A stretch of 64,000 nucleotides of DNA from an uncultured Pseudohongiella sp. (GTDB taxonomy: Bacteria > Pseudomonadota > Gammaproteobacteria > Pseudomonadales > Pseudohongiellaceae). A model generated the notes under the pieces. The model saw only the letters and a program-made list of their open reading frames with translations. It did no database searches and was not told where the DNA came from. Within the stretch, counting starts at the first letter, position 1; every line of letters begins with the position of its first letter. This document shows positions 9,971-48,163 of this stretch, one piece after another. The stretch is taken from the NCBI GenBank assembly GCA_965221015.1, contig OZ244859.1, positions 922,046 to 986,045 on the forward strand. Reading direction: 5' to 3'. The position numbers and the translations under genes were made by a program.

Positions 9971-10360
9971 CCTATTCAATACCATATTAGGTGTGGTTTT
10001 CCGGCAACCGGGCGCGGCAGCGCAGCACGAAGTGTTGGACCGGAATCAATTTGAGCACAGAGCATCTCAGAGCATCACGGAGTAAAGCCAAGCAAAAGCG
10101 AGCAAAAAAGCACCAATGCATGTAAAATGCCGCAGTCGGCCAGCGTTCGGCCGCGGCAAGCCCGGATTTGCCAGAATGAGAACAGAATGACCAGCGTGAA
10201 ACCACTCGCGAAAGAGGGAATTTCAAAATCAGGTTCAACAGCCCGCCGGCTGTTGGCTGCCGTGCGCGCGAAATGCCCGAGTTGGCCGTTCGCGCGCCTT
10301 GGCGCGCACCCGAAACTTCCCGCTCTTCCGCTCGTGCGATTGGCCGCACGCCTTAGCCAG

Positions 10361-10474
10361 CAACAAAAGCCCGCGCAACAAGAGGCCGCGCAACAAGAGG
10401 CCGCGCAACAAAAAGCCGCGCAACAAAAGGCCCCTCAACAAAGAGCCGCACGACAAAACGCCGCGCACAAGAAT
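10361..10474 (+). repeat. 15-bp tandem repeat, ~7.5 units (caacaagaggccgcg), in frame with the giant ORF
   Basis: The units are caacaaaagcccgcg / caacaagaggccgcg x2 / caacaaaaagccgcg / caacaaaaggcccct / caacaaagagccgca / cgacaaaacgccgcg. If translated they give QQ(E/K)AA pentapeptides. Confidence 0.85.
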
Positions 10475-10534
10475 CCAGCCGTCGCGTTTCCCTTCCTTTA
10501 TATACCCGCCGAATCCCGGCCCGGCCCCGCGCCC

Positions 10535-10654
10535 ATGGCCCGGCGATTTGCCCCGCTGAGCGCCGCCAAGCGCGTTCTCTCCAAGGCGGCGGCCACGCTC
10601 GCCTTGTCAGCGCTCGCGCTCGTGTCCTTGGGGATGAGCGCCTCCGCCCAGGCC
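10535..10654 (+). other. Predicted Sec signal peptide of the giant protein
   Basis: It has a basic n-region (MARRF..KR), a hydrophobic core ATLALSALALVSLG, and an A-Q-A cleavage-type motif ending at 10654. Confidence 0.6.
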
Positions 10655-22600: not shown

Positions 22601-25600
22601 TTGAGCTGGACCCTGCCCACCAACGCCAGCGTGATCGGCGCGGTGCAGGTGCGCTGGAAGGCCACGGCGGACCTGCCGTTCACCGCCAGCGACGCCTGGA
22701 CCGACCTCGCCGGCACGGCCACCGCCTACACGGCCACCGGCCTGACCAACGGCACCGGCTACACCTTCGCGGTGCGCGCCACCAACACCGCCGGCGACGG
22801 CCCCGCAGCCACCACCGCGGCCACACCGGCGGCGGGGGCGGGTCTCGATGTTTCCGAGACCTTCCTCCGGGTGCCCGGAGGCGGCAGCGATACCTTCACC
22901 GTGAAGTTGGCAGCCGCGCCCAGCGGTCCGGTGACGGTGGCGGTGGCCAGCAACGAGTCCGACGTGACCGTGAGCCCGGTCATCCTCAACTTCGACGCCA
23001 CGAACTACGCCACGCCGCAAACCGTGACCGTCAACATGGCCGAGTATCGCAGGCCGTTGGGCGGCAATGGCACAGTGGCCCTGAGCGCCGCCGCCGGCGG
23101 CTACGACGGCATCACCGCGTCGGTGGAAGTCGCGTCCGTGCCCGTCCTGAAATCGATCAAGCGCCAGGACCCGACCGCCTCGCTCACCAACGCGGATCAA
23201 GTGCGCTGGAGAGTCACCTTCAGCGAGCGCGTGGACTTCGACGACGCATCCAAGTCCGCGTCCTACGCAACTTCGTTCAGCCCGAATTTGGCAAACCCGC
23301 CCGCGCCAGTGGTCTCTCCAGGGGCTATCCTGCCCGGTTGCAATGGCAGCCAGTACTTTGATGTGGACCTCGGCGACACCAACGCAATCACCACGCTGGA
23401 CGACTACAACGGCACGGTCACGCTAACGCTGAAATCGGATGCAAGAATCCAAAGCTGCACCGGCGTCGCAATTGGAGACCGAACGCCAACCGAACCGGTT
23501 GAGTCGTTCACTTTGGACAATATCGCGCCCACGGTGACCATCACCGGCGTTTCCGGCACGGTCACCGCGGCGGTGGACGCCACTTTCACCTTCAGCGAGC
23601 CGGTCACCGGCTTCGAGATCAGCGACATCAAGCTGACCAACGCCAACCCGTCGGATTTCGCCGAAGCGGGCAGCGCGGACGGGACCACCTACACCGCCAA
23701 GATCACCCCGAAGGCCGCCGGCGAATTCAGCGTTGGCGTGGAGGCGGATAAGGCCGAGGACGCCGCCGGCAACGGCAACACGGCCGCGACAACAGTCACC
23801 GCGACCTACCAATCGCCGAACAACCCGCCGGTGGTGGCCAACCCAATCCCGGACGTGGATCTGAACGAGGGCGTTTCCGAAACCGTGGACCTGTCGACGG
23901 TGTTCAGCGACCCGGACAACGACCCGCTGACCTTCAGCGCGGTGTCGAGCGACACCGACCTGGTGTCGGCGTCTGTGAATGGCAACACGCTCACCTACAA
24001 GGCGCTGGTGCCCGGCGGCGCGGCCACGGTGACGGTGACGGCCGACGACGGCAGAGGCGGCACCGTGGACGATGTGTTCGAGGTGACCACCCTCGTGCCG
24101 CCGAACGATCCGCCGACCCTGGACAATCCGCTCGCCGACCTGACGCTGACCGCGGGCGAAACGCGGGATGTGGATGTTTCGAAGGTGTTCAGCGACCCGG
24201 ACAACGACCCGCTGACCTACCTGGCAACTTCGGCCGACCCGTCGAAGGCGACCGTGTCGGTGAAGGACGCGATAGTCACGGTTGAAGGCGTTGCGGCGGG
24301 CACCTCGACGGTGACCGTGACGGCGGACGACGGCAAAGACGGCAAGGTGGACGATGAGTTCACCGTCACCGTGGAAGCGGACCTTGCGCCGGACTTCGGC
24401 ACGGCGACCATCGACAACCAGCTCTACACGCAGGGCGTGGCCGTCACGAAGCTGACCCTGCCCGAAGCGAGCGGCGGCAATGGCACCTTGAGCTACACGC
24501 TCCAGCCGTCGCTGCCAGCCGGCCTGGCGTTCGACGCGAACAGCCGGGAGATTACGGGAACGCCCACGGCCGTGAGCGCGGCGGCTTCCTACGACTACAC
24601 GGCGACGGACGCGGACGGCGACACGGCAACCCTGAAGTTCATCATCGAAGTCAAGGCGAACACTGCGCCCAGCTTCGGCACGGCGACGGTGCCGGCGCAG
24701 ACCTACACGCGGGGCGAGGCGATCACCGCCCTGCAGTTGCCCGCCGCGACCGGCGGCAACGGTGCGCTGACCTACGGAATAGAGCCGGCGCTGCCGAACG
24801 GCCTGGCATTCAACGCCAGCAAACGGGATATCACCGGAACGCCGACGGTGGTGACAGCGCAGGCGACCTACAGCTACACGGCGACGGATGCGGACGGCGA
24901 CGCGGCGACCTTGACGTTCACCATTGAAGTGGTGGCGGCGGTGAACCAACCGCCGGTGGTGGACAATCCGATCCCGGACCAGACGCTGAGTGAGGGCAAG
25001 TCCGGCACCGTGGACCTGTCTACGGTGTTCAGCGACCCGGAGAACGACCCGCTGACCTTCGGCGCGGTGTCGAGCGACACGGCCCAGGTGACGGTGGCGG
25101 TAGTAGGTTCCACGCTCACGTTCACGGCCGTGTCGGCCGGCGCGCCGACGCTGACGGTGACCGCGGACGACAACAAAGGCGGCAAGGTCAACGATGTGTT
25201 CGTTGTGACGGTGGTGGCGAACGAGTTGCCCAGCTTCGGCACCGAGACCATCGCCCACCAGCACTACACCTTGAACACGGCCATCGCCACGCTGAACTTC
25301 CCCGCAGCCACCGGCGGCAACGCCCCGCTGACCTACAGCCTGAGCCCGGTCGCCCCCGCGGGCCTGACCTTCGACGCCGACGCCCGCACGCTGACCGGCA
25401 CGCCCACCGCGGCCCGGCCCGCCACGGCCTACACCTACACCGCCACCGACGCCGACGGCGACACGGCGAGCCTCAGTTTCAACATCACCATCAGGGACCC
25501 GCAGGCGCCGCCCGCCAAGCCCGGCAACCTCACCGCCACGGCCGGCGACACCGAAGTCACCTTGAACTGGGATAACCCCAACGACGCCAGCATCACCAAG

Positions 25601-28600
25601 TACCAGTATGTCTCCCGGGAAGGCCTGGGGATTGGTCTGTGGCAGGACATTCCGGGCAGCGGCGCCGGCACCACCAGCTACACGGTGACCGGCCTGACCA
25701 ACGGCACCGAGTACAGCTTCCAGATCCGGGCGGTGAACAACGGCGGCAACAGCGACGACTCCGACACCGTCACCGCAACGCCGCGGGCCGACACCACGCC
25801 CAGCTTTGGCACCGAGACCATCGCCGACCAGAACTACACCCAGAACACGGCCATCGCCACGCTGAACCTGCCCGCTGCCACCGGCGGCAACGCCCCGCTA
25901 ACCTACAGCCTGAGCCCGGCCGCCCCCGCGGGCCTGCTGTTTGACGCCGTCAACCGCACCTTGACGGGCACGCCCACAACGGCCCAGAGCCAGGCGGCCT
26001 ACACCTACACCGCCACCGACGCCGACGGCGACGCAGTCAGCCTCACCTTCAACATCACCATTGCCCAGGCCCCGACCCAGGCGCGCACGTTGACCTTCAC
26101 CTTCTCCGATGACGGCACCACCACCACCATTGCCGCTTCGGGCAGTTTGGATGTCTCGGGCTTCAATTATCTCCAGGATACGACGCCGCAAGGTGAGGGA
26201 TTCTCAGGTCTGCTTATAGACGATACGGAGATATGGCAAATTATGCCTCAGTCGGATACCACACCACTTAGCTGGTATGGCTCGCTCCCGAACTTTGTGA
26301 CCACCGGCACGAGCACCTACACGGGTAATGCGAAAGTCGAAACACTGAGCAACTACAGCCACGATTTTGCCATCCGGTTCAGCACTTATCTTCCGAGGCT
26401 GTACATAGATAAAACCAATCTCACCGGAAACATTTATGACCTGACGGGCAAGAATGTGACGTTCACCGGCACCCTGTCCGGGACTCTTGGGGACAATGAC
26501 TTCCATATCGAACATGCGTTTGGCAATCAGAAGATCATCTTCAAGGCAACACCGCCGCCGGTACCCGCCGCGCCCGCCAACCTGGCCGCCGCGCCCGGCG
26601 ACACCGAAGTCACCCTGAGCTGGAACAACCCGAACGATTCCAGCATCACCAAGTACCAGCTCCGCCAGGCGCAAGGCGCAAGCGTGCCCGGCAGCACCGT
26701 CTGGGCCGACATCACCGGCAGCGGCGCCGGCACCACCAGCCACACGGTCACCGGCCTGACCAACGGCCAGCAATACGCCTTCCAGATCCGGGCGGTGAAC
26801 AACGCCGGCAACAGCGACGCCTCCGACACCGTCACCGCGACGCCGCGGGTCGACACTGATCCCAGCTTCGGCACCGAGACCATCGCCGACCAGAACTACA
26901 CCCGCAACACGGCCATCGCCACGCTGACCCTGCCCGAAGCCACCGGCGGCAACGGCACCCTGACCTACAGCCTGAGCCCGAACGCCCCGGCCGGCCTGAA
27001 CTTCGACGCCACCAACCGCACCCTCACCGGCACCCCGAGCGCGGTCCAGGATGCGACGCAGTACACCTACACCGCCACCGACGCCGACGGCGACACGGCC
27101 AGCCTGACGTTCAACATCACCGTCGCCGAGGCGGTCGAGCCGCCCGCCAGCCCCAGCAACCTGATCGCCATAGCCGGCGACACCAGGGTCACCCTGGTCT
27201 GGATCGACCCGAACGACCCCACCATCACCGGCTACGAGGTTCTCTACCAGTACGGCTCCGATCCCTGGGAGCCCATCGAGGGCAGCGACGCCACGACCAC
27301 CCGCCACACCGTGGAGAACCTGGTCAACGGCACGGAGTACACCTTCCAGATCCGCGCCGTGGCCGGCAAAGTCCCGGGCGATCCCTCGATCGCGGTCAAG
27401 GCGACGCCGCAAGTGGCGGTTCCCGACGCCCCGGAGAACCTGACGGCCACCGCGGGCGACCGCTCGGTGAACCTGAGCTGGGACCTGCCCACCAACGCCA
27501 GCGTGCTCGACAAGGTGCAGGTGCGCCACCAGGCCCGGGGCGAGACCACCTGGGAGCCCTGGACCGACCTGGCCGCGGACGCCACCACCCACACCGTGGC
27601 CAACCTGAAGAACGGCCAGGACTACTTCTTCGAAGTGCGCGCGGAGAGCGCGTCCGGCGCCGGCCCGGCGGCGCGGACGGCCGGACGGCCGGAGCTGGCG
27701 GTTCCCGAAGCCCCCGGCAACCTGACCGCGGCGCCCGGCGACGGCGCGGTGGGCCTGACTTGGGACCTGCCGACCAACACCAGCGAAATCGACAAGATGC
27801 AGGTGGCTTACAAGGTGAAGAGCGCGGCGAACTTCCTGCCTTGGGTTGACCTGGCGAAGGACGCCACCAGCCACGACGTCACCGGCCTCACCAACGGCAC
27901 CGAGTACACGTTCGTCGTGCGCGCGCTGAACGACGCCGGCCGCGGCGCCGAGGCGGAGGTGGACGCGACGCCGGTGGCGGGGCCGGGCAAGGTGCCGTCC
28001 GCGCCGGCCGACCTGGCGGCGACGGCGGGCGACACCCAAGTGACGTTGACTTGGACCCATGCGCGGGACAACAGCATCACCAAGTACCAGGTCCGCCACA
28101 TTGAAGGCGCCAGCGTGCCCGACAGCGAGCCTTGGACCGACATAGCCGGCAGCAACGCCGGCACCACCGGTCACACGGTGACCGGCCTGACCAACGACAC
28201 CCTGCACGCCTTCGAAATCCGCGCGGTGAACGCCAACGGCGCGGGCGCGGCCTCGGCGGTGACGGCGACGCCGAAGCTGGCGATCCCCGAAGCTCCCGGC
28301 AACCTGACCGCGGCGCCCGGCGACGGCAAGGTCGGCCTGACCTGGGACCTGCCCACCAACACGAGCGAAATCGACAGGATGCAGGTGGCATACAAGCTGA
28401 AGAGCGCGGCGAACTTCCAGCCCTGGGTTGACCTGGCGAAAGACGCCACCAGTTACGAAGTCACCGGCCTGACCAACGGCAGCGAGTACACGTTCATCGT
28501 GCGCGCGCTGAACGGCGCGGGCCGCGGCGCCGTGGCGGAGGTGGATTCGACGCCGGTGGCGGTGCCGACCGCGCCGACCGGCCTGGCGGCGGCCCCCGGC

Positions 28601-31600
28601 GATACCCAGGTCGTCCTGAGCTGGACCCTGCCGGCAAACTCCGGCGCGCTGACCAGGGTGCAGGCGCGCCACAAGGCGGACACGGCGAAGGACTGGGAGG
28701 CCTGGGTTGACCTGGCGGCGAACGCCACCACCCACACCGTGACCGGCCTGACCAACGGCGAGCTGTACAACTTCGAGGTGCGGGCGGAGAACGCCTCCGG
28801 CCCCGGCGCGGCGGCGTCGGTCTCGGCCACTCCGGTGCCCCCGCTGGTTGCCCCTGGCGCGCCGACCAACCTGAGCGCGGTGCCCGGCGACACCGAGGTG
28901 GTGGTGCTGTGGACCCTGCCCACGAACACCAGCCAGATCGACAGCGTCGAACTGCGCCACAAGGTGAAGTCGGCCCCCGACACCGGCTGGAGCCAGTGGA
29001 CCTCCCTGGCGGGCACGGCGGAGCGCTCCCGGGTGACGGGCCTGGCCAACGGCACCGACTACCTGTTCGAGGTCCGCGCGGTGAACACCGCGGGCACCGG
29101 CCCGTCGGCCAGCGTCGAGGGCACGCCGCAGCTGGCGAAGCCCTCGTCCCCGAGCAACCTGCAGGCCAGCGCCGGCGACACACAAGTGACCCTGACCTGG
29201 GACCTGCCGGACAAGGGCACCGTGGACACCATCGACGTGCGCCACAAGAAGAAGACGGACACAAGCTGGAGCCTCTGGACCCGGCTGGCGGCGGATGCCA
29301 CCACCACCACCGTGACCGCCCTCGACAACGGCGTGACCTACGAGTTCGAGGTCCGCGCCAGCAACGGCGCCGGCAGCAGCGACCCGGTGGCCGTGGACGC
29401 TCAGCCGAAGCTGGCGGTCCCCGAAGCCCCGACGAGCCTGACGGCAACCGGCGGCAACGCCCAGGTCGAATTGAGCTGGGCCCTGCCGACCAACGCCAGC
29501 GTGATCGGCGCGGTGCAGGTGCGCTGGAAGGCCACCGCCGACCTGCCGTTCAGCGCCGGCGACGCCTGGACCGACCTCGCCGGCACGGCCACCGCCTACA
29601 CGGCGACGGGCCTGACCAACGGCACCGGCTACACCTTCGAAGTGCGCGCCACCAACACCGCCGGCGACGGCCCCGCGGCCACCGCCGCGGCCACACCGAT
29701 GGCGCCCTCGACCCCGGCGCGCACATTGACCCTCACTTTCTCCGATGACGGCAGCACCGTGACCGTTGCGGCCTCGGGCAGCTTGGACGTGTCGGGCTTC
29801 AGTGATCGAGGGGATACAACAAGGCAAAGGATTGGGGGGGCGGGAACACTTATCCTAATAAATGATGAATTTGAGAAGTGGCAAGTTTCTGTACCATTCG
29901 AAGATCCCACACCGCTTCGCGAGTACCGTTCGCTCCCGGCCTTCGTGATAACTGGATTGAGCTCTTACTCCGGTTATTCGGCACTCGAATTCCTGAATGA
30001 CTACAGCACTGAGTTCACCATCCGACTTAACAGTTACTATAAGTTGCTATTCATAGACAAGGCCAATCTCACCGGAAACATCTACGACCCAACAGGAGAC
30101 GTGGCGACGTTCTCGGGCACCCTGCTCACCACGTTGCAAGACAACGACTTCCACATCGAGATCGCCATCGGCAATCAAAAGGTTATTTTCAAGACAGCAT
30201 CCCCAGCCACGGTGCCGGACGCGCCAACCGGACTGGCCGCGGCCGCGGGCAATGCCCAGGTTGACCTGGCTTGGACCAACCCGAACGACAGCAACATCAC
30301 CAGGTACCAGGTGCGCTACGGCTCGGGTTCCACCGTGCCCGCCACCGCCACCTGGGAAGACATCACCGGCAGCGGCGCCGGCACCACAACCCACACCGTC
30401 GCCGGCCTCACCAACGACACCGAGTACGCCTTCGAAATCCGCGCGGTGAACGCCCGCGGCAACAGCGCCGCCTCCGCCACGGTGACGGCGACGCCGGAGG
30501 CCGACACCACGCCGAGCTTCGGCACCGAGACCATCGCCGACCAGAACTACACCCGCAACACGGCCATCGCGACCCTGACCCTGCCCGAGGCCACCGGCGG
30601 CAACGGCACCCTGACCTACAGCCTGAGCCCCAACGCCCCCGCGGGCCTGAACTTCGACGCCACCAACCGCACCCTCACCGGCACGCCGAGCGCGGTCCAG
30701 GATGCGACGCAGTACACCTACACCGCCACCGACGCCGACGGCGACACGGCCAGCCTGACGTTCAACATCACCATCGCCGAGGCGGTCGAGCCGCCCGCCA
30801 AGCCCAGGAACTTCACTGCCGTGGCCGGCGACACGGAAGTCACCCTGAACTGGGAAGATCCCCGGGACGACAGCATCACCAAGTACCAGATTTTCGACTT
30901 TGAAAACGTGGGCTTTGACCTGTGGGATGACATTCCCGGCAGCGGCGCCACCACCACCACCCACACGGTGACCGGCCTGACCAACGGCACCGAGTACAGC
31001 TTCCAGATCCGCGCCGTGGCCGGCAGCCTCCCGGGCGACGCCTCCGACGCGGTCAAGGCGACGCCGCAACTGGCGGTCCCCGACGCGCCGACCGGGCTCA
31101 GCGCCACGGCGGGCAACGCCGAAGTGGACCTGAGCTGGAAGCTGCCCACCAACACCAGCGAGATTGTCGCCGTGCAGGTGCGCTGGAAGGCCACAGTGGA
31201 CCTGCCGTTCGACAACGCCAGCGACAAATGGACCGACCTTCCGTCCTCCGATGCGACCGACCACAAGGTCACCGGCCTGACCAACGGCACCGGCTACACC
31301 TTCCAGGTGCGCGCCACCAACAAGGCCGGCAACGGCCAGCCGGCCACCGGCGCGGCGACGCCGCGGGCGCCTCCGGGCAAGGTGCCGTCCGCGCCCGCCG
31401 ATCTGGCGTCGACCCCCGGCGACACACGGGTCACCCTGAACTGGACCCTGCCGACCGACGGGGGCGCGCTGACCAAGGTGCAGGTGCGCCACCAGGCCCG
31501 GGGCGAGACCACCTGGGAGCCTTGGACCGACCTGGCCGCGGACGCCACCACCCACACCGTGGCCAACCTGAAGAACGGCCAGGACTATCTGTTTGAAGTG

Positions 31601-34600
31601 CGCGCGGAGAGCGGGGCCGGCGCCGGCCCGGCGGCGCGGGTGACCGGAAGGCCGGAGCTGGCGGTCCCCGGCGCCCCGACCGGGCTCAGCGCCACGGCGG
31701 GCAACGCCGAAGTGGACCTGGCCTGGACGCTGCCCACCAACACCAGCGAGATTGTCTCCGTGCAGGTGCGCTGGAAGGCCACAGTGGACCTGCCGTTCGA
31801 CGACGCCCGCGACAAGTGGACCGACCTTCCGTCCTCCGCGGCCACCGACCACAAGGTCACCGGCCTGACCAACGGCACCGGCTACACCTTCCAGGTGCGC
31901 GCCACCAACAAGGCTGGCAACGGCGAGCCGGCCACCGGCGCGGCGACGCCGCGGGCGCCGCCGCTGGTGACGCCGGGCGCGCCGACCAACCTGAGCACGG
32001 TGCCCGGCGACACCGAGGTGGTGGTGCTGTGGACGCTGCCCACGAACACCAGCCAGATCGACAGCGTCGAGCTGCGCCACAAGGTGAAGACGGCCCCCGA
32101 CACCGGCTGGAGCCAGTGGACCTCCCTGGCCGGCACGGCCGAGCGTTCCCGGGTGACGGGCCTGGTCAACGGCACCGACTACCTGTTCGAGGTCCGCGCG
32201 GTGAACACCGCGGGCACCGGCCCGTCCGCCAGCGTCGAGGGCACGCCGCAGCTGGCGAAGCCCTCGTCCCCGAGCAACCTGCAGGCCAGCGCCGGCGACA
32301 CACAAGTGACCCTGACCTGGGACCTGCCGGACAAGGGCACCGTGGACAGCATCGACGTGCGCCACAAGAAGAGGGCGGACACAAGCTGGGGCCAATGGAC
32401 CCTGCTGGCGGCGGATGCCACCACCCACACCGTGACCGGCCTCGACAACGGCGTGCCCTACGAGTTCCAGGTCCGCGCCACCAACGCCGCCGGCAGCAGC
32501 GACCCGGTGGCCGTGGCCGGAACGCCGAAGCTGGCGGTCCCGGACGCCCCCGGCAACCTGACCGCCTCCGCGGGCGACGGCGCGGTGGCCCTGACCTGGG
32601 ACCTGCCCACCAACACCAGCGAAATCGACAATATGCAGGTGGCATACCGGGAGTCCGGCGCGGCCAACTACCTGCCCTGGGTCGACCTGGCGAAGGACGC
32701 CACCAGCTACGACGTTACCGGCCTGACCAACGGCACCGAGTACAACTTCATCGTGCGCGCGCTGAACGGCGCGGGCCGCGGCGCCGAGGCGCGGGTGGAC
32801 GCGACGCCCGAGGCGGGGCCGGGCAAGGTGCCGTCCGCGCCGGCCGACCTGGCGGCGACGGCGGGCGACACCAAGGTTTCGCTGGCGTGGATCCAGTCCC
32901 GCGACAATAGCATCACCAAGTACCAGTTCCGCTACGCCGAAGGCGCGTCCGTGCCCGGCACCGAGAGCTGGACCGACATCGCCGGCAGCGGCGCCGGCAC
33001 CACCGGCCACGAAGTGACCGGCCTGACCAACGACACCCTGCACGCCTTCGAGATCCGCGCGGTGAACGCCAACGGCGCCGGCGCGGCCTCGGCGGTGACG
33101 GCGACGCCGAAGCTGGCGATCCCCGAAGCTCCCGGCAACCTGACCGCGGCGCCCGGCGACGGCAAGGTCGGCCTGACCTGGGACCTGCCCACCAACACGA
33201 GCGAAATCGACAGGATGCAGGTGGCATACAAGCTGAAGAGCGCGGCGAACTTCCAGCCCTGGGTTGACCTGGCGAAAGACGCCACCAGTTACGAAGTCAC
33301 CGGCCTGACCAACGGCAGCGAGTACACGTTCATCGTGCGCGCGCTGAACGGCGCGGGCCGCGGCGCCGTGGCGGAGGTGGATTCGACGCCGGTGGCGGTG
33401 CCGACCGCGCCGACCGGCCTGGCGGCGGCCCCCGGCGATACCCAGGTCGTCCTGAGCTGGACCCTGCCGGCAAACTCCGGCGCGCTGACCAGGGTGCAGG
33501 CGCGCCACAAGGCGGACACGGCGAAGGACTGGGAGGCCTGGGTTGACCTGGCGGCGAACGCCACCACCCACACCGTGACCGGCCTGACCAACGGCGAGCT
33601 GTACAACTTCGAGGTGCGGGCGGAGAACGCCTCCGGCCCCGGCGCGGCGGCGTCGGTCTCGGCCACTCCGGTGCCCCCGCTGGTTGCCCCTGGCGCGCCG
33701 ACCAACCTGAGCGCGGTGCCCGGCGACACCGAGGTGGTGGTGCTGTGGACCCTGCCCACGAACACCAGCCAGATCGACAGCGTCGAACTGCGCCACAAGG
33801 TGAAGTCGGCCCCCGACACCGGCTGGAGCCAGTGGACCTCCCTGGCGGGCACGGCGGAGCGCTCCCGGGTGACGGGCCTGGCCAACGGCACCGACTACCT
33901 GTTCGAGGTCCGCGCGGTGAACACCGCGGGCACCGGCCCGTCGGCCAGCGTCGAGGGCACGCCGCAGCTGGCGAAGCCCTCGTCCCCGAGCAACCTGCAG
34001 GCCAGCGCCGGCGACACACAAGTGACCCTGACCTGGGACCTGCCGGACAAGGGCACCGTGGACACCATCGACGTGCGCCACAAGAAGAAGACGGACACAA
34101 GCTGGAGCCTCTGGACCCGGCTGGCGGCGGATGCCACCACCACCACCGTGACCGCCCTCGACAACGGCGTGACCTACGAGTTCGAGGTCCGCGCCAGCAA
34201 CGGCGCCGGCAGCAGCGACCCGGTGGCCGTGGACGCCCAGCCGAAGCTGGCGGTCCCCGAAGCCCCGACGAGCCTGACGGCAACCGGCGGCAACGCCCAG
34301 GTCGCCCTGAGCTGGACCCTGCCGACAAACGCCAGCGTGATCGGCGCGGTGCAGGTGCGCTGGAAGGCCACCGCCGACCTGCCGTTCAGCGCTGGCGACG
34401 CCTGGACCGACCTCGCCGGCACGGCCACCGCCTACACGGCCACCGGCCTGACCAACGGCACTGGCTACACCTTCGCAGTGCGCGCCACCAACACCGCCGG
34501 CGACGGCCCCGCGGCCACCGCCGCGGCCACACCGATGGCGCCCTCGACGCCGGCGCGCACGTTGACCTTCACCTTCTCCGATGACGGCACCACCACCACC

Positions 34601-37600
34601 ATTGCCGCCTCCGGAAGCCTGGATATGTCCAGCTTTAGAGAAGTCGGGGATACGGTGCCGGAAGACATCATCTACATCAAGATAGACGACACCGAAGACT
34701 GGGCATTTCATCCGTCGTCGGTAGGCGGGATCCCGTCGAAGCGCTACGACCAGCTGCCGGACTTCAACATAATCGGAAGGAATACCTACACGGGTACTAC
34801 GTCTATCGACAGCGCGCAAAACTACAGCAACGAGTTCACCATCCGGTTCAGCACCTTCCGCAAGTACATGGTCGTGGACAAGGCCAGCCTCAACGGGGAC
34901 ATCTATAACCCGACGGGCAAAAAGGTCACGCTCTCGGGCACCGTGCTCGGCACCTTCGGCGACAACGACTTCCGCATCGAGCTTGGGATTGGCAACCAGA
35001 AGATCGTTTACACGGCAACACCGCCGCCGGTACCCGCCGCGCCCGCCAACCTGGCCGCCGCGCCCGGCGACACCGAAGTCACCCTGAGCTGGAACAACCC
35101 GAACGATTCCAGCATCACCAGGTACCAGCTCCGCCAGGCCCAGGGCCAAACCGTGCCCGGCAGCACCGCCTGGACCGACATCGCCGGCAGCGGCGCCGCC
35201 ACCACCAGCCACACGGTGTCGGACCTCATCAACGGCCAGCAATACGCCTTCCAGATCCGGGCCGTGAACAACGCCGGCAACAGTGACGCCTCCGACACCG
35301 CCACCGCGACGCCGCGGGCCGATACTGATCCCAGCTTCGGCACCGAGACCATCGCCGACCAGAACTACACCCGCAACACGGCCATCGCCACGCTGACCCT
35401 GCCCGAAGCCACCGGCGGCAACGGCACCCTGACCTACAGCCTGAACCCGGCCGCCCCCGCGGGCCTGAATTTCGACGCCACCAACCGCACCCTCACCGGC
35501 ACCCCGAGCGCGGTCCAGGATGAGACGGCCTACACCTACACGGTCACCGACGCCGACGGCGACACGGCGACACTCACGTTCAACATCACCGTCGCCGAGG
35601 CGGTCGAACCGCCCGCCAAGCCCAGGAACTTCACCGCCGTGGCCGGCGACACGGAAGTCACCCTGAACTGGGAAGATCCCAGGGACGACAGCATCACCAA
35701 GTACCAGATATTCGACTTTGAAAACGTGGGCTTTGACCTGTGGGATGACATTCCGGGCAGCGGCGCCACCACCGCCACCCACACGGTGACCGGCCTGACC
35801 AACGGCACCGAGTACACCTTCCAGATCCGCGCCGTGGCCGGCAGCCTCCCGGGCGACGCCTCCGACGCGGTCAAGGCGACGCCGCAAGTGGCGGTTCCGG
35901 ACGCCCCGGACAACCTGACGGCCACCGCGGGCGACCGCTCCGTGAGCCTGAGCTGGGACCTGCCCACCAACACCAGCGCGCTGGACAAGGTGCAGGTGCG
36001 CCACCAGGTCCGGGGCGAGACCACCTGGGAGCCCTGGACCGACCTGGCCGCGGACGCCACCACCCACACCGTGGCCAACCTGAAGAACGGCCAGGACTAC
36101 CTGTTCGAAGTGCGCGCGGAGAGCGCGTCCGGCGCCGGCCCGGCGGCGCGGGTGGCCGGAACGCCGAAGCTGGCGGTCCCGGACGCCCCCGGCAACCTGA
36201 CCGCCTCCGCGGGCGACGGCGCGGTGGCCCTGACCTGGGACCTGCCCACCAACACCAGCGAAATCGACAATATGCAGGTGGCATACCGTGAGTCCGGCGC
36301 GGCCAACTACCTGCCCTGGGTCGACCTGGCGAAGGACGCCACCAGTTACGACGTCACCGGCCTGACCAACGGCACCGAGTACAACTTCATCGTGCGCGCG
36401 CTGAATGGCGCGGGCCGCGGCGCCGAGGCGCGGGTGGACGCGACGCCCGAGGCGGGGCCGGGCAAGGTGCCGTCCGCGCCGGCCGACCTGGCGGCGACGG
36501 CGGGCGACACCAAGGTTTCGCTGGCGTGGACCCAGTCCCGCGACAACAGCATCACCAAGTACCAGTTCCGCTACGCCGAAGGCGCGTCCGTGCCCGGCAC
36601 CGAGAGCTGGACCGACATCGCCGGCAGCGGCGCCGGCACCACCGGCCACACGGTGACCGGCCTGACCAACGACACCCTGCACGCCTTCGAAATCCGCGCG
36701 GTGAACGCCAACGGCGCCGGCGCGGCCTCGGCGGTGACGGCCACGCCGAAGCTGGCGATCCCCGAAGCCCCCGGCAACCTGACCGCGGCACCCGGCGACG
36801 GCAAGGTCGGCCTGACCTGGGACCTGCCCACCAACACCAGCGAAATCGACAGGATGCAGGTGGCATACAAGCTGAAGAGCGCGGCGAACTTCCAGCCCTG
36901 GGTTGACCTGGCGAAAGACGCCACCAGTTACGAAGTCACCGGCCTGACCAACGGCAGCGAGTACACGTTCATCGTGCGCGCGCTGAACGGCGCCGGCCGC
37001 GGCGCCGTGGCGGAGGTGGATTCGACGCCGGTGGCGGTGCCGACCGCGCCGACCGGCCTGGCGGCGGCCCCCGGCGACACGCAAGTCGTGCTCAGCTGGA
37101 CCCTGCCGACCAACTCCGGCGCGCTGACCAGGGTGCAGGCGCGCCACAAGGCGGACACGGCGAAAGACTGGGAGGCCTGGGTTGACCTGGCCGCGAACGC
37201 CACCACCCACACCGTGACCGGCCTGACCAACGGCGAGCTGTACAACTTCGAGGTGCGGGCGGAGAACGCCTCCGGCCCCGGCGCGGCCGCGTCGGTCTCG
37301 GCCACCCCGGTGCCCCCGCTGGTTGCCCCTGGCGCGCCGACCAACCTGAGCACGGTGCCCGGCGACACCGAGGTGGTGGTGCTGTGGACCCTGCCCACCA
37401 ACACCAGGCAGATCGACAGCGTCGAGCTGCGCCACAAGGTGAAGGCGGCCCCCGACACCGGCTGGAGCCAGTGGACCTCCCTGGCCGGCACGGCGGAGCG
37501 TTCCCGGGTGACGGGCCTGGTCAACGGCACCGACTACCTGTTCGAGGTCCGCGCGGTGAACACCGCGGGCACCGGCCCGTCGGCCAGCGTCGAGGGCACG

Positions 37601-40600
37601 CCGCAGCTGGCGAAGCCCTCGTCCCCGAGCAACCTGCAGGCCAGCGCCGGCGACACAACGGTGACCCTGACCTGGGACCTGCCGGACAAGGGCACCGTGG
37701 ACACCATCGACGTGCGCCACAAGAAGAAGACGGACACAAGCTGGAGCCTCTGGACCCGGCTGGCGGCGGATGCCACCACCACCACCGTGACCGCCCTCGA
37801 CAACGGCGTGACCTACGAGTTCGAGGTCCGCGCCAGCAACGGCGCCGGCAGCAGCGACCCGGTGGCCGTGGACGCCCAGCCGAAGCTGGCGGTCCCCGAA
37901 GCCCCGACGAGCCTGACGGCAACCGGCGGCAACGCCCAGGTCGCCCTGAGCTGGACCCTGCCGACAAACGCCAGCGTGATCGGCGCGGTGCAGGTGCGCT
38001 GGAAGGCCACCGCCGACCTGCCGTTCAGCGCCGGCGACGCCTGGACCGACCTCGCCGGCACGGCCACCGCCTACACGGCCACCGGCCTGACCAACGGCAC
38101 TGGCTACACCTTCGCAGTGCGCGCCACCAACACCGCCGGCGACGGCCCCGCGGCCACCGCCGCGGCCACACCGGCGCTGCCGCCGGGTATTGCGGTGTCG
38201 CCGGACAGCCTCCAGATCAGGCCGGGTGCCAGCGCCACCTTCACCGCGGCGCTGTCCACCGAGCCGAGCGGCACGGTGACCGTGGCCGTGACCAGCAACG
38301 ACAGCGACGTGACGGTGGATTCGGCTTCCTCCAGCCTGACCTTCACCGCCGCGAATTACGCCACGCCGCAAACGGTGACCGTGAACATGGTTGCGAACCC
38401 GGACGACGGCAACGCGACCATCAATCTGGCCGCCAGCGGCGGCGGCTACGCCGGCGTGACCGCCTCGGTGGCGGTGAGCCTGGAGCCCGCGCCCAGCTTC
38501 GGCACGCAGACGGTGGCCGACCAGACCTACAGCCAGGATCTGGCCATCACCACCTTGAACCTGCCCGAAGCCACCGGCGGTGACACTCCGCTGACCTACA
38601 CGCTGACGCCAACGCCCCCGGCGGGATTGGTCTTCGACGCCGCAAACCGCACCCTCGCCGGCACGCCGACCGCGGTCCAGGTTGCGACGCCATACACCTA
38701 TACCGTCACCGATGACAATGGCGACGCGGCAAGCCTCACGTTCAACATCACAATCACCTTGCCGCCGGCGCCGGACGCGCCCACAGGCTTGGCCGCGGTG
38801 GGCAGCGACACCAAGGTCACATTGACCTGGACGGACCCGGGCAACACCTCCATCACCAAGTACCAGCTGCGCTACCGTGAAGGTCCCACCGTGCCCGGCA
38901 CCGCCGACTGGGAGGACATCCCCGGCAGCGATGACACGACCACAACGCACCAAGTGAGCGGCCTTCTCAACGGATACGAATACGCGTTCCAGATTCGCGC
39001 GGTGAACGCCGGCGGCGAGAGCGACCCCTCGGCAACGGTGACGGCAAGGCCGTCGATCGAAGGCCGACCGCCCCCCGCAACCATAGTCAGCGTGGGTCCG
39101 GGCACCAACGACAAAGACCTCGACATTGTCTGGAACTGGAGCCTCGGCGATTCGCCATGCACCATGAATTCCTACACGATCGAATACAAGAGAAGCGATG
39201 CTTCCGAGTGGAACGACCACGCCGCAACTAAGCCGAACTCGCCCGAGCATGGCGTGTTTGAAATCTACGAGGATCTTGGTACCGGGGTCACCAACAAGCG
39301 CAACACGATCAACTTGCAGACCGTTGGTCGCAATCCCGGTGAGGTCGGCGTATCGCTGGATGACACCACTTACGATGTCCGTATCCGCATGTGGTCACTG
39401 GTCTGCTTTGAGTTGGACCAAGACTTTCCAGACCATGAAAGCGGCAGGCCGTTCTACCTGTTGGGCAAGCCGACCAGCTTCACCGCAACGGCGGGTGACG
39501 CGAAGGCGACGCTGGCGGCAACCGTGGCGCAGCGCGGCCCGGCGATCCAGAAGTGGCAGTACACCTACAAAGAGGGCGCCGCCGGCACCTTCATCGACTG
39601 GACCGACATCGCCGACAGCGCTTCCTTGACGATTTCCGACAAGGATGTGGCGGGCCTGACCAACGGCACCACCTATACCTTCAAGGTGCGCGGGGTCCAC
39701 GAGCAAGGCGCGGGCGCCGAGTCGGATGAAGTGATGGTGACGCCGGTGTCCGCGGTGAACACGCCGCCGACGGCTTCCGACAATACCGTCACCACGGATG
39801 AGGACACCGCCTACACCTTTGACGCCGCCGACTTCAACTTCAGTGACGTGGACAGCGGCGACACCCTCGCCAGTGTGAAGATCACCGGCCTTGAAACCGC
39901 CGGCGCGTTGCAGCTGAGCGGCGCCGACGTGACCCTGGACCAGGTGATCACCGCCGCCGATATTGACGGCGACAACCTGACCTTCACCCCGGCGGCCAAC
40001 GCCAACGGCGACCCCTACGCCAGCTTCGGGTTCTCGGTCAACGACGGCACCGACGACAGCACGGCGTCCTACACCATGACCATCGACGTGACGCCGGTGA
40101 ACGACGCGCCCACCGTGGCCAACGCCATCGGCGCCCGTTCGGTGGCCGCCGGCTCGAACCTGACCGTGGCGCTGGAAACCGACGGCAGCGAAGTGTTCAA
40201 CGACGTTGACGGCGACGCGCTGACCTATACGGCCACGTCCGCCACCGAAACCGCGGCGACGGTAACCGTGGACAACGACGCCAACACGATCACGCTGACC
40301 GGCGTCGCGGCTGGCACTTCGGAGATCACTGTGACCGCGGCCGACGGCAACGGCGGTACGGTGAACGACACGTTCACGCTGACGGTCACGGCCGCGCCGC
40401 CGACCAACACCCCGCCGACGGCTTCCGACAATACCGTCACCACGGATGAGGACACCGCCTACACCTTCGACGCCGCCGACTTCAACTTCAGCGACGTGGA
40501 CAGCGGCGACACCCTCGCCAGCGTGAAGATCACCGGTCTTGAAACCGCCGGCGCGTTGCAACTCAGCGGCGCCGACGTGACCCAGGACCAGGTGATCACC

Positions 40601-43600
40601 GCCGCCAGCATAGACGGCGACAACCTGACCTTCACCCCGGTGGCCAACGCCAACGGCGACCCCTACGCAACGTTCCAGTTCAGCGTCAACGACGGCACCG
40701 ACGACAGCACGGCGTCCTACACCATGACCATCGACGTAACCGCCGTGAACGACGCGCCCACCGTGGCCAACGCCATCGGCGCCCGCACCGTGGCCGCAGG
40801 CTCGAACCTGACCGTGGCGCTTGAGACATCTGGCAGCGAAGTGTTCAACGATGTTGACGGCGACACGCTGACCTACTCGGCCACTTCCGCCACCGAAACC
40901 GCCGCGACGGTTACGGTGGACAACGACGCGAACACAATCACGCTGACCGGCGTCGCGGCTGGCACTTCGGAGATCACTGTGACCGCGGCCGACGGCAACG
41001 GCGGTACGGTGAACGACACGTTCACGCTGACGGTCACGGCCGCGCCGCCGACCAACACCCCGCCGACGGCTTCCGACAATACCGTCACCACGGATGAGGA
41101 CACCGCCTACACCTTCGACGCCACCGACTTCAACTTCAGCGACGTGGACAGCGGCGACACCCTCGCCAGCGTCAAGATCACCGGCCTCGAAACCGCCGGC
41201 GCCCTGCAACTGAGCGGCGCCGACGTGACCCAGGACCAAGTGATTCCGGTAGCCAACATCGACGGCGACAACCTGACCTTCACCCCGGCGGCCAACGCCA
41301 ACGGCGACCCCTACGCAACGTTCCAGTTCAGCGTCAACGACGGCACCGACGACAGCGCCGCGTCCTACACCATGACCATCGACGTCACGCCGGTGAACGA
41401 CGCGCCCACCGTGGCCAACGCCATCGGCGCCCGCACCGTGGCCGCAGGCTCGAACCTGACCGTGGCGCTTGAGACATCTGGCAGCGAAGTGTTCAACGAT
41501 GTTGACGGCGACACGCTGACTTATACGGCCACGTCCGCCACCGAAACCGCGGCGACGGTAACCGTGGACAACGACGCCAACACAATCACGCTGACCGGCG
41601 TCGCGGCGGGCACTTCGGAGATCACCGTCACCGCGGCCGACGGCAACGGCGGCAGCGTCACCAACACTTTCACCTTGACCGTGACCTCGGACCCCGGCCC
41701 GACCAACACCCCGCCGACGGCTTCCGACAACACCGTCACCACGGACGAAGACACGGCCTACACGTTTGACGCCGCCGACTTCAACTTCAGCGACGTCGAC
41801 TCCGGCGACACCCTCGCCAGCGTCAAGATCACCGGCCTCGAAACCACCGGCGCCCTGCAACTGAGCGGCGCCGACGTGACCCAGGACCAAGTGATTCCGG
41901 TAGCCAACATCGACGCCGACAACCTGACCTTCACCCCGGCCGCCAACGCCAACGGCGACCCCTACGCAACCTTCCGGTTCTCGGTCAACGACGGCGAAGC
42001 CGACAGCGCCGCGTCCTACACCATGACCATCGACGTGACGCCGGTGAACGACGCGCCCACCGTGGCCAACGCCATCGGCGCCCGTTCGGTGGCCGCCGGT
42101 TCGAACCTGACCGTGGCGCTTGAGACATCTGGCAGCGAAGTATTCAACGATGTCGACGGCGACACGCTGACCTACTCGGCCACGTCCGCCACCGAAACCG
42201 CGGCGACGGTAACCGTGGACAACGACGCCAACACAGTCACGCTGACCGGCGTCGCGGCTGGCACCTCGGTGATCACCGTGACCGCAAACGACGGCAACGG
42301 CGGCAGCGTCACCGACACCTTCACCTTGACCGTGACCTCGGACCCCGGCCCGACCAACACCCCGCCGACGGCTTCCGACAATACCGTCACCACGGATGAG
42401 GACACCGCCTACACCTTCGACGCCGCCGACTTCAACTTTAGCGACGTGGACAGCGGCGACACCCTCGCCAGCGTCAAGATCACCGGCCTTGAAACCGCCG
42501 GCGCCCTGCAACTCAGCGGCACCGACGTGACCCAGGACCAGGTGATCACCGCGGCCAACATCGACGGCGACAACCTGACCTTCACCCCGGCCGCCAACGC
42601 CAACGGCGACCCCTACGCAACGTTCCAGTTCAGCGTCAACGACGGCACCGACGACAGCGCCGCGTCCTACACCATGACCATCGACGTCACCGCCGTGAAC
42701 GACGCGCCCACCGTGGCCAACGCCATCGGCGCCCGCACCGTGGCCGCAGGCTCGAACCTGACCGTGGCGCTTGAGACATCTGGCAGCGAAGTGTTCAACG
42801 ATGTTGACGGCGACACGCTGACCTACTCGGCCACTTCCGCCACCGAAACCGCCGCGACGGTTACGGTGGACAACGACGCGAACACAATCACGCTGACCGG
42901 CGTCGCGGCTGGCACTTCGGAGATCACCGTGACCGCAAACGACGGCAACGGCGGCAGCGTCACCGACACCTTCACGCTGACCGTGACTTCGGACCCCGGC
43001 CCGACCAACACGCCGCCGACGGCTTCCGACAACACGGTCACCACGGATGAAGACACCGCCTACACCTTCGACGCCGCCGACTTCAACTTCAGCGACGTGG
43101 ACAGCGGCGACACCCTCGCCAGCGTGAAGATCACCGGCCTTGAAACCGCCGGCGCCTTGCAACTGAGCGGCGCCGACGTGACCCAGGACCAAGTGATTCC
43201 GGTAGCCAACATCGACGCCGACAACCTGACTTTCACCCCGGCCGCCAACGCCAACGGCGACCCCTACGCAACCTTCCGGTTCTCGGTCAACGACGGCGAA
43301 GCGGACAGCGCCGCGTCCTACACCATGACCCTCGACGTGACGCCGGTGAACGACGCACCCACCGTGGCCAACGCCATCGGCGCCCGTTCGGTGGCCGCCG
43401 GCTCGAACCTGACCGTGGCGCTTGAGACATCTGGCAGCGAGGTGTTCAACGACGTTGACGGCGACACGCTGACTTATACGGCCACTTCCGCCACCGAAAC
43501 CGCGGCGACGGTAACCGTGGACAACGACGCCAACACGATCACGCTGACCGGCGTCGCGGCTGGCACTTCGGAGATCACTGTGACCGCGGCCGACGGCAAC

Positions 43601-46600
43601 GGCGGTACGGTGAACGACACGTTCACGCTGACGGTCACGGCCGCGCCGCCGACCAACACCCCGCCGACGGCTTCCGACAATACCGTCACCACGGATGAGG
43701 ACACCGCCTACACCTTCGACGCCGCCGACTTCAACTTCAGCGACGTGGACAGCGGCGACACCCTCGCCAGCGTCAAGATCACCGGCCTCGAAACCGCCGG
43801 CGCCTTGCAACTGAGCGGCGCCGACGTGACCCGGGACCAGGTGATCACCGCCGCCAACATCGACGCCGACAACCTGACCTTCACCCCGGCCGCCAACGCC
43901 AACGGCGACCCCTACGCGACCTTCCGGTTCTCGGTTAACGACGGCGAAGCCGACAGCACGGCGTCCTACACCATGACCATCGACGTGACGCCGGTGAACG
44001 ACGCGCCCACCGTGGCCAACGCCATTCCGGACCAGACCGCGATTGTGGCCAGCGCCTTCAGCTACGCCTTCCCGGCGGACACCTTCACGGACGTCGACAA
44101 CGACAGCTTGACTTACACCGCGCAGCAGTCTAACGGTACCGCGCTGCCGACCTGGTTGAGCTTTACCGCCGCCACGCGCACCTTCTCCGGCACGCCGCAG
44201 ACAGCGGACGAAGGCACGCTCTCGGTGCAAGTGACGGCGAACGACGGCAACAACGGCCAAGTCTCGGATACCTTCGACATCACGGTCGTGGGCACGCCGG
44301 ACGCGCCCACCGGCCTGACCGCGACAGCAGGCGACGGACAGGTCAGCCTGAGCTGGAACAACCCGACCGATTCCAGCATCACCAGGTACCAGCTCCGCTA
44401 CGGCGCCGGCGCCACCGTGCCCGACAGCGCCACCTGGGCGGACATCGGCGGCAGCGGCGCCGCAACCACGTCCCACACGGTGACCGGCCTGTCCAACGGC
44501 ACGCAATACGCCTTCGAGATTCGCGCGGTCAACGCCGCCGGCAACAGCGACGCCTCCGATACCGCAACCGCAACCCCGGCAGCCTCCGGCGGTGGTGGCG
44601 GCGGCGGCGGTGGCGGCACCGACCTGACGCCCACATTTGGCAATGCGGAGATTGCCGACCTGAGCTTCACCAAGGACGAGGCCATCGAAACGCTGACGCT
44701 GCCCCGGGCAACCAGCGGCAACGGTACGCTGACCTACAGCCTCAGCCCGGCCCTGCCGGCGGGCCTCAGCTTCAACGCAGCGACCAGACAGCTATCCGGC
44801 ACGCCGACCGAAGCATTCGCGCAAACCGAGTTCAGCTACACCGCCACCGACGTCGACGGCGACAGCGCCACGTTGACCTTCAACATCACCGTGGTGGAAG
44901 CGGACGTGGCCCCGAGCTTCGGCGACGCATCCATAGCCGACCAGAACTACATCCAAAACGCGGCCATCGATCCGCTGACCCTGCCCGAAGCGACAGGCGG
45001 CAACGGAACCTTGAGCTACAGCCTCGAACCAGCCGCGCCGGCGGGCCTGAGCCTGGATGCCGCCGCGCGAATCCTGAGCGGAACGCCGACCGAAGCCCAA
45101 GCCGCCGGTGGCTACACCTGGACCGCCACCGACGAAGACGGCGACACGGCCAGCCTCAGCTTCAGCATCCGAGTCGCCGCCGCGCTCAGTCTGGCCGGTG
45201 TGGCCGATACCGAGGTCGCGGAGAACAACGCCTACAGCGCCGAGGCCACACTCGAAGGCACCCCGCTGGGCGAAGTCGCCTGGAGCCTGACAGGCGCCGA
45301 CGCGGCCCTGTTCGCACTGACGAATGAAAGCGGCGGTGGCGCAACCGTGTCGCTGGCCGCGCAAGACTTCGAAAACCCGGCCGACGCCGACGGCAACAAC
45401 ACCTATGTCTACAGCCTGAGCGCCACCGACGCCGACGGCAACAGCGTAAGCCGGCGCGCGGTGGTCACCGTGACCGATGTGCGCGAAGCCGTGGAACTGA
45501 CGGTGGCTGGTTTGTCCGGCGGTTCGGCCGACGTGGCGGAAAACGCACCCTACAGCGACACGGCGACATTGGAAGGCACCCCCGTGGGCGCTGTCGAATG
45601 GTCGCTGACCGGCCCCGACGCCGCCCTGTTCAGCCTGTCCGGTGAAAGCGACAGCGGCGTGACAGTTTCGCTGCCCGCCCAGGATTTCGAGAATCCGGCG
45701 GACGCCAATGGCGACAATGCGTACCAGTACACCTTGACCGCCACCGATGCCGACGGCAATGTCGCCACGCTCGAAGTGACCGTCCGCATCACCGACGAAG
45801 CCGACACCGCGACCGTGCCCCAGGCGCCGGCCGCGCCAAGGCTCGAAGCCGGCGACAAGCGCATCGCTGTGGCCTGGTCCGCGCCGGCGGATGACGGCGG
45901 CAGCGCCATCACCGGCTACACCGTGCAGTGGAAGCCGGCCGCCGCCAGCTGGCCGCAGCCCGCGCCGGACAACAGCGCCAACCTGGGCGCCAACGCAAGC
46001 AGCTTCACCATTGACGGCCTGGTCAACGGCACCACCTACGAAGTGCGCGTCCTGGCGCGCAACGCGGTCGGCGACGGCGCCTGGTCCGATGCGTCCCGCG
46101 CCACGCCGATGGCGGTGACGGATGTTTCGCGCCTCTACAGCGACGTGAACGAAGCCCTGCTGCCGCGCATCGGCCAGACCATCCTCGACGGTTCGATCAC
46201 CGCCGTGCGGAACCGGCTCGACTTGGTCGGCCAGCCGACACCCGCGCCCGAAGAAAGCAGCTTCGTGGCGAATTTCGGCGGCTACCGCTTCACCGGCGCG
46301 GCACCGCAAACCTACAACTACAACCAGCCCGCCGCGGGCTTCACCATCGGCGACGACCGGCTCGCGCTCGCGCTCGCGCTGGATGAGCTGGATCTGCCGG
46401 CGGCCAACTCGATGCCGGGCTTGCAAGGCATGCGCGACAGCGGCGTCTTCGGCCTGGCGACCAGCGGTCCAAACTCCGCGGCCAATGTCGAAGGCGCCAG
46501 CAACATGGGCGGCGCGGCCGGCCGGCGCGGAACCTCCGCCGCGGGCGGCATGGGCCGCAGCGGTGGAAGCTCCGGCATGGGTGGCATGGGCCGTTCGGCT

Positions 46601-48163: not shown

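Follow-up and report, generated by a model that had tools for sequence, protein, structure and literature searches.

A candidate disordered, hypervariable Gly/Met-rich linker spacer in a giant, divergent autotransporter-type adhesin

Introduction

Autotransporters of type Va (Pfam family PF03797), represented by structures such as NalP (1UYN), EspP (2QOM/3SLJ), BrkA (3QQ2), Hbp (3AEH), EstA (3KVN) and AIDA-I (4MEE), combine a signal peptide, a β-helical passenger, a helix and a C-terminal barrel of 12 strands with an aromatic end. In these proteins a short turn leads from the helix to strand 1. Here we describe a protein that shares the C-terminal barrel with its aromatic end, the preceding helix and a likely signal peptide, but differs from type Va in its passenger, its linker and the size of its barrel. 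It is encoded in a 64,000-nucleotide stretch of DNA from an uncultured Pseudohongiella sp. (contig OZ244859.1), which is called the window in the following. A giant open reading frame (ORF) of 12,678 codons within the window specifies an autotransporter-type adhesin, albeit a divergent one, whose linker between helix and barrel contains a 113-residue tract dominated by glycine and methionine. Our preferred reading, which we hold with middling confidence, is that this tract is a disordered, hypervariable linker spacer of a giant FN3/Ig-repeat adhesin, expanded in a single clade by local tandem duplication.

Two kinds of Met-rich sequence offer themselves for comparison. Methionine-rich tracts of the M-x-M or MGGM type bind Cu(I)/Ag(I) in CopA/PcoA, in the insert of CueO, in CusF and in PcoE/SilE, and the Mets motifs of Ctr1 belong to the same group. 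The other kind is found in the chaperonin GroEL, whose GGM tails are C-terminal, cytosolic, 13–60 residues long and located inside the folding cage. Hydrophobicity and flexibility of these tails matter, and they have been reported to bind clients (PMC11978752, PMC12571646).

Composition and repeats of the tract

The tract comprises residues 12126–12238 of the ORF and reads NMGGAAGRRGTSAAGGMGRS...GMNGMGRG. A preliminary description, made from the DNA letters, had drawn attention to a low-complexity Gly/Met-rich insert of ~113 residues at this place, which is confirmed by the in-frame translation and its composition. Glycine makes up 46% and methionine 22% (25 residues), followed by alanine (11.5%), serine (8%), asparagine (6%), arginine (5%) and a single threonine. 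Asp, Glu, Lys, His and Cys are all absent and the net charge is +6. The remainder of the giant protein contains 0.44% methionine and 8.6% glycine; measured against it, the binomial probability of finding at least 25 methionines in 113 residues is 6e-35. The spacing of the methionines is regular as well: the interval is three residues in 14 of 24 cases and six in another five, which produces an xGM/GGM-like pattern with 14 MxxM spacings. In all six reading frames the window has no second G/M-rich stretch of this kind. The tract is a genuine part of the coding sequence.

At the level of the DNA it is built from imperfect tandem units of 9, 18, 21 and 45 bp, for example a 21-bp unit present 4.3 times at 86% and an 18-bp unit present 1.9 times at 100%. 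The alanine codons are atypical, with GCA used in 6 of 13 positions compared to 6% across the gene, which fits copied units.

The triplet periodicity also invites the view that the tract is no random coil at all, but a folded polyproline-II (PPII) or collagen-like Gly-X-Y bundle, or else a methionine redox buffer. Up to nine consecutive G-x-y triplets are found, GGM tails are PPII-prone and populate PPII helices (PMC12571646), and two metagenomic (GMS/GMG)n proteins (L111, L126) match the Pfam Collagen model. The tract itself gives no match to this model at E<=1, its triplet register is broken repeatedly, its predicted confidence is very low (see below) and no methionine sulfoxide reductase (Msr) gene was seen among the neighbouring ORFs scanned. 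With nine triplets as the longest run and no Collagen match, the collagen-like version was dropped, and we regard this group of readings as scarcely probable.

The tract within its protein family

How widespread is such a tract among related proteins? We examined ~270 relatives, namely 39 genome loci, 82 database proteins and the 148 best 50%-cluster representatives. The loci were found with a barrel search of species-representative genomes, all at ~30% identity, and belong to metagenome-assembled genomes (MAGs) of Nitrospirales, Binatia, Nitrospinales, Thermodesulfobacteriota, Gamma- and Alphaproteobacteria, Vicinamibacterales and 'Poriferihabitaceae'. The 82 database proteins of the barrel family come from a profile search, and an exhaustive HMMER search yielded 2,308 cluster representatives of the family at E<=1e-3. 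A metagenome scan with exact barrel peptides returned no close relatives. The Met-rich tract is absent from 39 of 39 loci, 82 of 82 proteins and 147 of 148 best representatives, with a maximum of 8 methionines per 60 residues. A mild enrichment of 6–7 methionines per 60 residues, without Gly-Met repeats, is seen in the same linker segment of three distant members (P0201, P0211, P0215).

The family itself is diverse. Several paralogues occur per genome, and their passengers are composed of FN3, He_PIG, Calx-beta and cadherin-like repeats in proteins of up to 6,523 residues. Some MAG names among the hosts presumably point to sponge symbionts.

The sole exception among the relatives is an orthologue, P0084 (WP_446830453.1, 'putative Ig domain-containing protein [Candidatus Foliamicus sp.]'), from a gammaproteobacterium. 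It is 62% identical to the window protein over the C-terminus and carries a G/M/S/A-rich spacer at the site of the tract. Upstream of the spacer the last FN3 domain, helix 1 and the motif 'SSFVANxGxYRF' are near-identical in both proteins, and so are 'DVMRxMLxR..G.S.F' and the barrel downstream. The spacers between these conserved flanks, however, cannot be aligned. The one in the window has 189 residues (G 32%, M 14%), the one in the orthologue 125 (G 34%, M 10%, S 13%), including the stretch 'MGHMGSMDSGM'. Both carry local tandem repeats of ATG-GGC-type units in their DNA, in the orthologue only as a short (ATGGGCAGC)x4 repeat. Judged from these two sequences, the G/M-rich flavour is common to the clade, while sequence, length and methionine positions are not. 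The preliminary description had named a hypervariable slippage product missing from most relatives as the finding that would speak against its functional proposals, and this is largely what we see: a tract in one orthologue only, differing there in length and sequence. Most simply, the Gly/Met flavour would result from repeated amplification of ATG-GGN-NNN units that go back to a shared ancestral seed.

The orthologous gene is called as three consecutive ORFs of 5,502, 116 and 1,872 residues with overlaps of a few bases (L161, Candidatus Foliamicus sp. contig, 1-8619). This split suggests frameshifts, a pseudogene or assembly errors. The protein also holds near-identical tandem repeats of ~220 residues.

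Although the tract is so restricted, the place where it sits is not peculiar to the clade. The linker of the family follows a common order of [LIV]LPx[VIM]..R....S...A[VI]S.R (helix 1), ..SLGG.., a short helix, 'LL..SSF.LPLNA' and 'LWGSGDY' (strand 1). The family hidden Markov model (HMM) matches the window in two pieces, leaving 208 residues between HMM positions 58 and 86. In the HMM alignment inserts of up to 90 residues follow match position 69 in 56 sequences, and 27 sequences have inserts after position 82. These inserts are of low complexity, rich in G/A/P/S/T/D, some plainly tandem-repeated and some with pairs of cysteines. Throughout the family, the site of the tract is a hot spot at which low-complexity sequence is inserted. 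The comparison with homologues bears out the earlier description of the tract as an insert in an autotransporter-type linker.

It had further been proposed that a passenger of such length requires a flexible linker in order to be passed or parked. Along these lines, the tract could be a threadable or extracellular stalk demanded by the exceptional length of the protein. Both tract-bearing proteins are giants, of 12,678 and at least 7,490 residues (the latter with the split ORFs summed), and the 32 residues between tract and strand 1 could physically span the barrel. Flexibility is indeed predicted, with a predicted local distance difference test score (pLDDT) below 40 for the tract outside an alignment artefact that is explained in the next section. 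The need, on the other hand, is not borne out. Among 138 representatives with an alignable linker, linker lengths of 60–127 residues are uncorrelated with protein length (Spearman 0.08, p 0.37), which does not support a simple rule of long linkers for long passengers; members of 3,000–6,523 residues make do with linkers of 69–96. In addition, the one linker element predicted with the confidence of the barrel is helix 1, on the upstream side of the tract. Such a stalk is thus very unlikely. In the preferred reading the tract, as the extreme, Met-rich instance of a permissive spacer found across the family, would be a passive, flexible, uncharged-to-basic element that is tolerated by the fold.

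Linker layout and predicted topology

The preliminary description had placed the tract between a helical junction and the first barrel strand. Both of the flanking sequences it quoted are present, but the junction helix does not adjoin the tract. The helix VSRLYSDVNEALLPRIGQTILDGSITAVRNRLD ends 93 residues upstream, and the 32-residue segment beginning with DDQDIFDVMRPMLNRMIGDSSF separates the tract from strand 1, TRGIWGAGTYLNLGG (Table 1). In between lie a conserved post-helix segment and a first, non-repetitive part of the hypervariable spacer. The helix-to-strand-1 distance, bridged by a short turn in type Va, is ~55–58 residues in the canonical linker of the family and 235 in the window. 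Counted from the LLP motif, strand 1 follows after 264 residues in the window compared to 83–95 in most homologues.

Where would this enlarged linker reside relative to the membrane? A first AlphaFold2 (AF2) model of the window sequence contained a 29-residue helix within the tract (model residues 147–175, pLDDT ~75). This helix was rejected as an artefact, as MAFFT had put the junction helix of the homologues on the tract. Such behaviour on low-complexity sequence calls for caution in automated pipelines. The canonical homologue P0001 was then modelled instead. Its helix 1 (residues 295–330, 36 residues) reaches a pLDDT of 88–97, the same as the barrel. The next 58 residues have values of 37–68 and are arranged as coil, a helix (349–360), the turn 'DDSMD', a second helix (366–370) and a strand (374–378). 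The large insert of the window maps to the 'DDSMD' turn.

In the AF2 models every long loop of the barrel connects an odd-numbered strand to the even-numbered one after it. Together with the C-terminal phenylalanine, and following the usual rules for outer-membrane proteins, this places the start of strand 1 on the periplasmic side. Since the passenger must be outside and helix 1 is the sole linker element with barrel-level confidence, helix 1 would occupy the lumen and the spacer with the Gly/Met tract would be periplasmic. We consider this arrangement, in which helix 1 spans the lumen, rather likely on the basis of the models. The tract is not an extracellular barrel loop. In its choice of the word 'periplasmic' the preliminary description agrees with the side favoured by these confidence values and topology rules.

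The linker of the family consists, in sequence, of a conserved helix of ~33–36 residues, presumably in the lumen, a variable and poorly ordered segment, a conserved short helix and strand ('LL..SSF.LPL'), and strand 1 of the barrel. As part of the variable segment that follows the lumen helix, the tract would dangle at the periplasmic rim of the barrel, neither threaded through the pore nor displayed as a surface loop.

A comparable arrangement is known from the TpsB protein FhaC, which has an N-terminal helix H1 in the barrel lumen and a periplasmic linker. The likeness we infer lies in a helix that crosses the lumen and a flexible linker on the periplasmic side, which leads to the strands of the barrel. 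FhaC differs in being a 16-stranded, Omp85-type protein with POTRA domains that secretes a separate partner, and in Foldseek searches it is a weak match of the window barrel (TMq 0.18).

A divergent barrel

The barrel that terminates the giant protein is related to type Va, but unusual. When it is scanned alone (last 440 residues), PF03797 is found with 28.4 bits against a cutoff of 26 (E 1.7e-6), and the family is also present in many homologues; a scan of a longer piece of 753 residues gave no PF03797 match at E<=1. The match covers residues 39–251 on profile positions 6–207 of 255. While ~50 residues follow the end of the Pfam match in classical barrels, here it is ~190, and the barrel is ~100–140 residues longer than the 12-strand Pfam autotransporter model.

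AF2 predicts the window barrel with a pLDDT above 90. DSSP lists 18 β-segments both in this model and in that of P0001 (barrel residues 389–757), compared to the 12 strands of type Va. The best matches of the window barrel in the Protein Data Bank (PDB) found with Foldseek are nevertheless type Va, namely EstA, Hbp, BrkA, EspP, AIDA-I and NalP, the highest being BrkA with a TM-score of 0.77 normalised by the target. Type Va barrels are again the top matches for P0001, with TM-scores of 0.50–0.67. As a yardstick, idealised barrels of 14, 16 and 18 strands score 0.79, 0.65 and 0.6 against one of 12 strands, values that resemble the observed range of 0.50–0.77. Neither the barrel sequence nor the family profile had a match in sequence searches of the PDB. 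A Pfam match that stops at position 207 of 255, the 18 β-segments and these TM-scores mark the protein as a divergent autotransporter, and going by the models its barrel may represent an enlarged autotransporter-like class.

A second patch rich in G/A/M, MLGIAGPDQSGGMGGAAGIFGAATGGNG, lies inside the longest predicted loop of the barrel. In contrast to the main tract, this patch has a core, GGMGGAAGIFGAA, that is kept in the orthologue; distant homologues lack the patch.

Gly/Met-rich tracts in other proteins

Stretches of similar composition are known from unrelated proteins. We scanned metagenomes with a DNA pattern for periodic xGM runs, which gave at least 120 stretches. About half of the matches listed (~45–55) are extended C-termini of GroEL, and further tails belong to Hsp70, SRP54/Ffh, p23-like, Hop-like and ubiquilin-like proteins. 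Some 20 of the matches listed are small proteins with a signal peptide that consist almost wholly of GM(S/G) repeats. Single cases include a secretin (PF00263; L119, 894-4412, minus strand) with a 172-residue tract right after 'VYDISDLV', a tract fused to a periplasmic Metal_resist domain (PF13801; L127), a DsrE-domain protein with a tract (L102) and GM repeats combined with His and Asp (L077). No autotransporter was found among the Pfam-scanned proteins in the matches listed. A word-indexed protein search with the tract alone returned one weak match, a GGMP-type tail. In the searchable literature 'Gly-Met-rich' led to chaperone papers only, and nothing relevant linked autotransporters with Met-rich or GGM tracts, or concerned sponge-symbiont autotransporters or 'Foliamicus'.

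This distribution suggests a comparison with chaperones. The tract and the GroEL GGM tail are both dominated by Gly and Met, mostly with a period of three residues for the methionines. Weak hydrophobicity and a flexible or PPII-prone chain are further points in common (PMC11978752, PMC12571646). By analogy, the tract could act as a periplasmic 'methionine brush' which transiently holds or lubricates the unfolded passenger of 12,000 residues at the mouth of the barrel, or interacts there with BAM or with chaperones of the periplasm. Several observations agree with such a role: the same periodic xGM pattern is found in chaperone and targeting-factor tails, which account for most of the matches listed; the behaviour reported for the GroEL tails (PMC11978752, PMC12571646) would suit it; the Met-rich composition is kept in the orthologue; and the tract is probably periplasmic. 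The secretin offers a parallel, being an outer-membrane secretion channel with a long Gly/Met insert in a non-barrel, presumably periplasmic part, although it belongs to a different family and its tract contains hardly anything but G and M. The ~270 relatives without the tract, however, manage without a brush, among them the members of 3,000–6,523 residues, and the insertion site accepts inserts of quite different composition. Moreover, the likeness to GroEL is one of composition and not of homology. The tract is longer than the tails, internal and part of an outer-membrane protein, 32% of its residues are other than Gly and Met (A, S, N, R, T) and Pfam scans of the giant protein found no chaperonin domain. 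We therefore judge a brush of this kind unlikely.

The second comparison concerns metals. The preliminary description had suggested a metal- or oxidation-sensitive tether in the periplasm. A Met-rich tether of this kind could bind Cu(I)/Ag(I) and serve as a metal sponge or sensor, in analogy to CopA, PcoA, CueO or the Mets motifs of Ctr1. The 14 MxxM spacings, clustered in a probably periplasmic and flexible segment, would suit this role, as would the similar tract on a Metal_resist domain, the pairing of GM repeats with His and Asp in another protein and the 'MGHMGSMDSGM' of the orthologue. The tract of the window itself, on the contrary, contains no His, Asp, Glu or Cys, so that His or Asp co-ligands are missing, and it is positively charged. 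Position and length of the tract differ between the orthologues, Pfam scans of the giant protein found no cupredoxin or other known metal domain, and the 20 neighbouring ORFs scanned included no cop, cus, copper, silver or msr genes. A metal-binding role thus appears unlikely.

Some points weigh against the duplication spacer as well. The spacers of the two orthologues keep 10–14% methionine, compared to ~0.4% elsewhere, despite ~38% divergence, which could mean selection for methionine in place of neutral slippage. Gly/Met tracts in other proteins are strongly tied to chaperone tails and once to a periplasmic metal-resistance domain, which hints by analogy that such a composition can be functional. 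That helix 1 sits in the lumen and the tract on the periplasmic side is deduced from confidence values and topology rules, not from coordinates. Finally, a lumen of 18 strands could take more than one segment, and the turn between helix 2 and helix 3 could face outward. It is above all because both orthologues are rich in G and M at this site that the brush, the binding of Cu(I)/Ag(I) and a methionine redox buffer stay alive as readings.

Taken one step further, these analogies would make the tract a selected, periplasm-facing module in the translocator of an adhesin of >12,000 residues, either a GroEL-tail-like holdase or lubricant or a tether responsive to Cu(I) or oxidation. The Candidatus Foliamicus clade would have this module in common, with a parallel in the Gly/Met inserts of secretins. 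We see this as improbable. If the methionine richness is selected, the principle of the GGM tail, today documented only for cytosolic chaperones, would extend to the bacterial envelope and to a secretion device. If the tract is a duplication spacer only, its value is descriptive, marking a permissive and probably periplasmic loop in a large autotransporter-like family (>2,300 cluster representatives). This family has received little study, and it serves uncultured bacteria of several phyla in the export of giant FN3/Ig adhesins. It may be that the divergent barrel family deserves closer attention than the tract does.

The scan also brought up observations beyond the adhesin. The small bacterial signal-peptide proteins made of GM(S/G/Q) triplets (L049, L062, L090, L093, L110, L111, L126, L143, L157) appear to form a class of their own, so far uncharacterised, of secreted Gly-X-Y proteins rich in methionine. 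Two of them, the (GMS)n proteins with a Collagen match mentioned above, carry repeated 'GYF(R/K)I.P.G.I.FYP' modules. The loci with long internal Gly/Met tracts (L091, L066 and the above L119 and L127) include, next to the secretin and the Metal_resist protein, VWA-domain proteins in which the tract comes after 'VYPVGDLVVP'.

Passenger, translation start and feature coordinates

The passenger departs from the β-helix of type Va. It consists of more than 55 FN3 stretches, ~20 He_PIG stretches, and cadherin-like and Big_9 domains according to Pfam. The features of the giant ORF and its linker are collected in Table 1.

Table 1. Features of the giant adhesin gene in the window (positions refer to the 64,000-nucleotide stretch).
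Feature	Position	Strand	Basis
Giant adhesin ORF, 12,678 residues, with C-terminal autotransporter-type barrel	10127..48163	+	ORF listing
Likely Sec signal peptide MARRFAPLSAAKRVLSKAAATLALSALALVSLGMSASAQA	10535..10654	+	Judged by eye from the sequence
Last FN3 domain of the passenger	45827..46108	+	Pfam fn3, E 5.8e-10
Linker helix 1 VSRLYSDVNEALLPRIGQTILDGSITAVRNRLD, conserved, presumed lumen-spanning	46124..46222	+	Family HMM positions 15-58; near-identical in orthologue P0084
Post-helix segment LVGQPTPAPEESSFVANFGGYRF, conserved	46223..46291	+	Kept in the orthologue; equals the '...SLGG' segment of the family
Hypervariable spacer, first part, non-repetitive, 70 residues	46292..46501	+	Unalignable with the orthologue; canonical homologues without counterpart
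Gly/Met-rich tract, 113 residues (xGM/GGM-like repeats)	46502..46840	+	Translation of ORF 10127..48163
Helix 3 and short strand DDQDIFDVMRPMLNRMIGDSSFASQSGTASGS, conserved, leads to strand 1	46841..46936	+	Near-invariant family motif 'LL..SSF.LPL'; helix predicted at model residues 250-261; counterparts in P0001 are helix 366-370 and strand 374-378
C-terminal β-barrel, from strand 1 to the end ...LLDFRMNF	46937..48160	+	PF03797; AF2; Foldseek
Second G/A/M-rich patch MLGIAGPDQSGGMGGAAGIFGAATGGNG	47795..47896	+	

Translation of the giant ORF probably starts at Met137 (position 10535), the first residue of the signal-peptide-like sequence, and not at 10127. The 136 codons that precede it (10127–10534) are probably untranslated and contain a QQEAAQQEAAQQKAAQQKAPQQ repeat.

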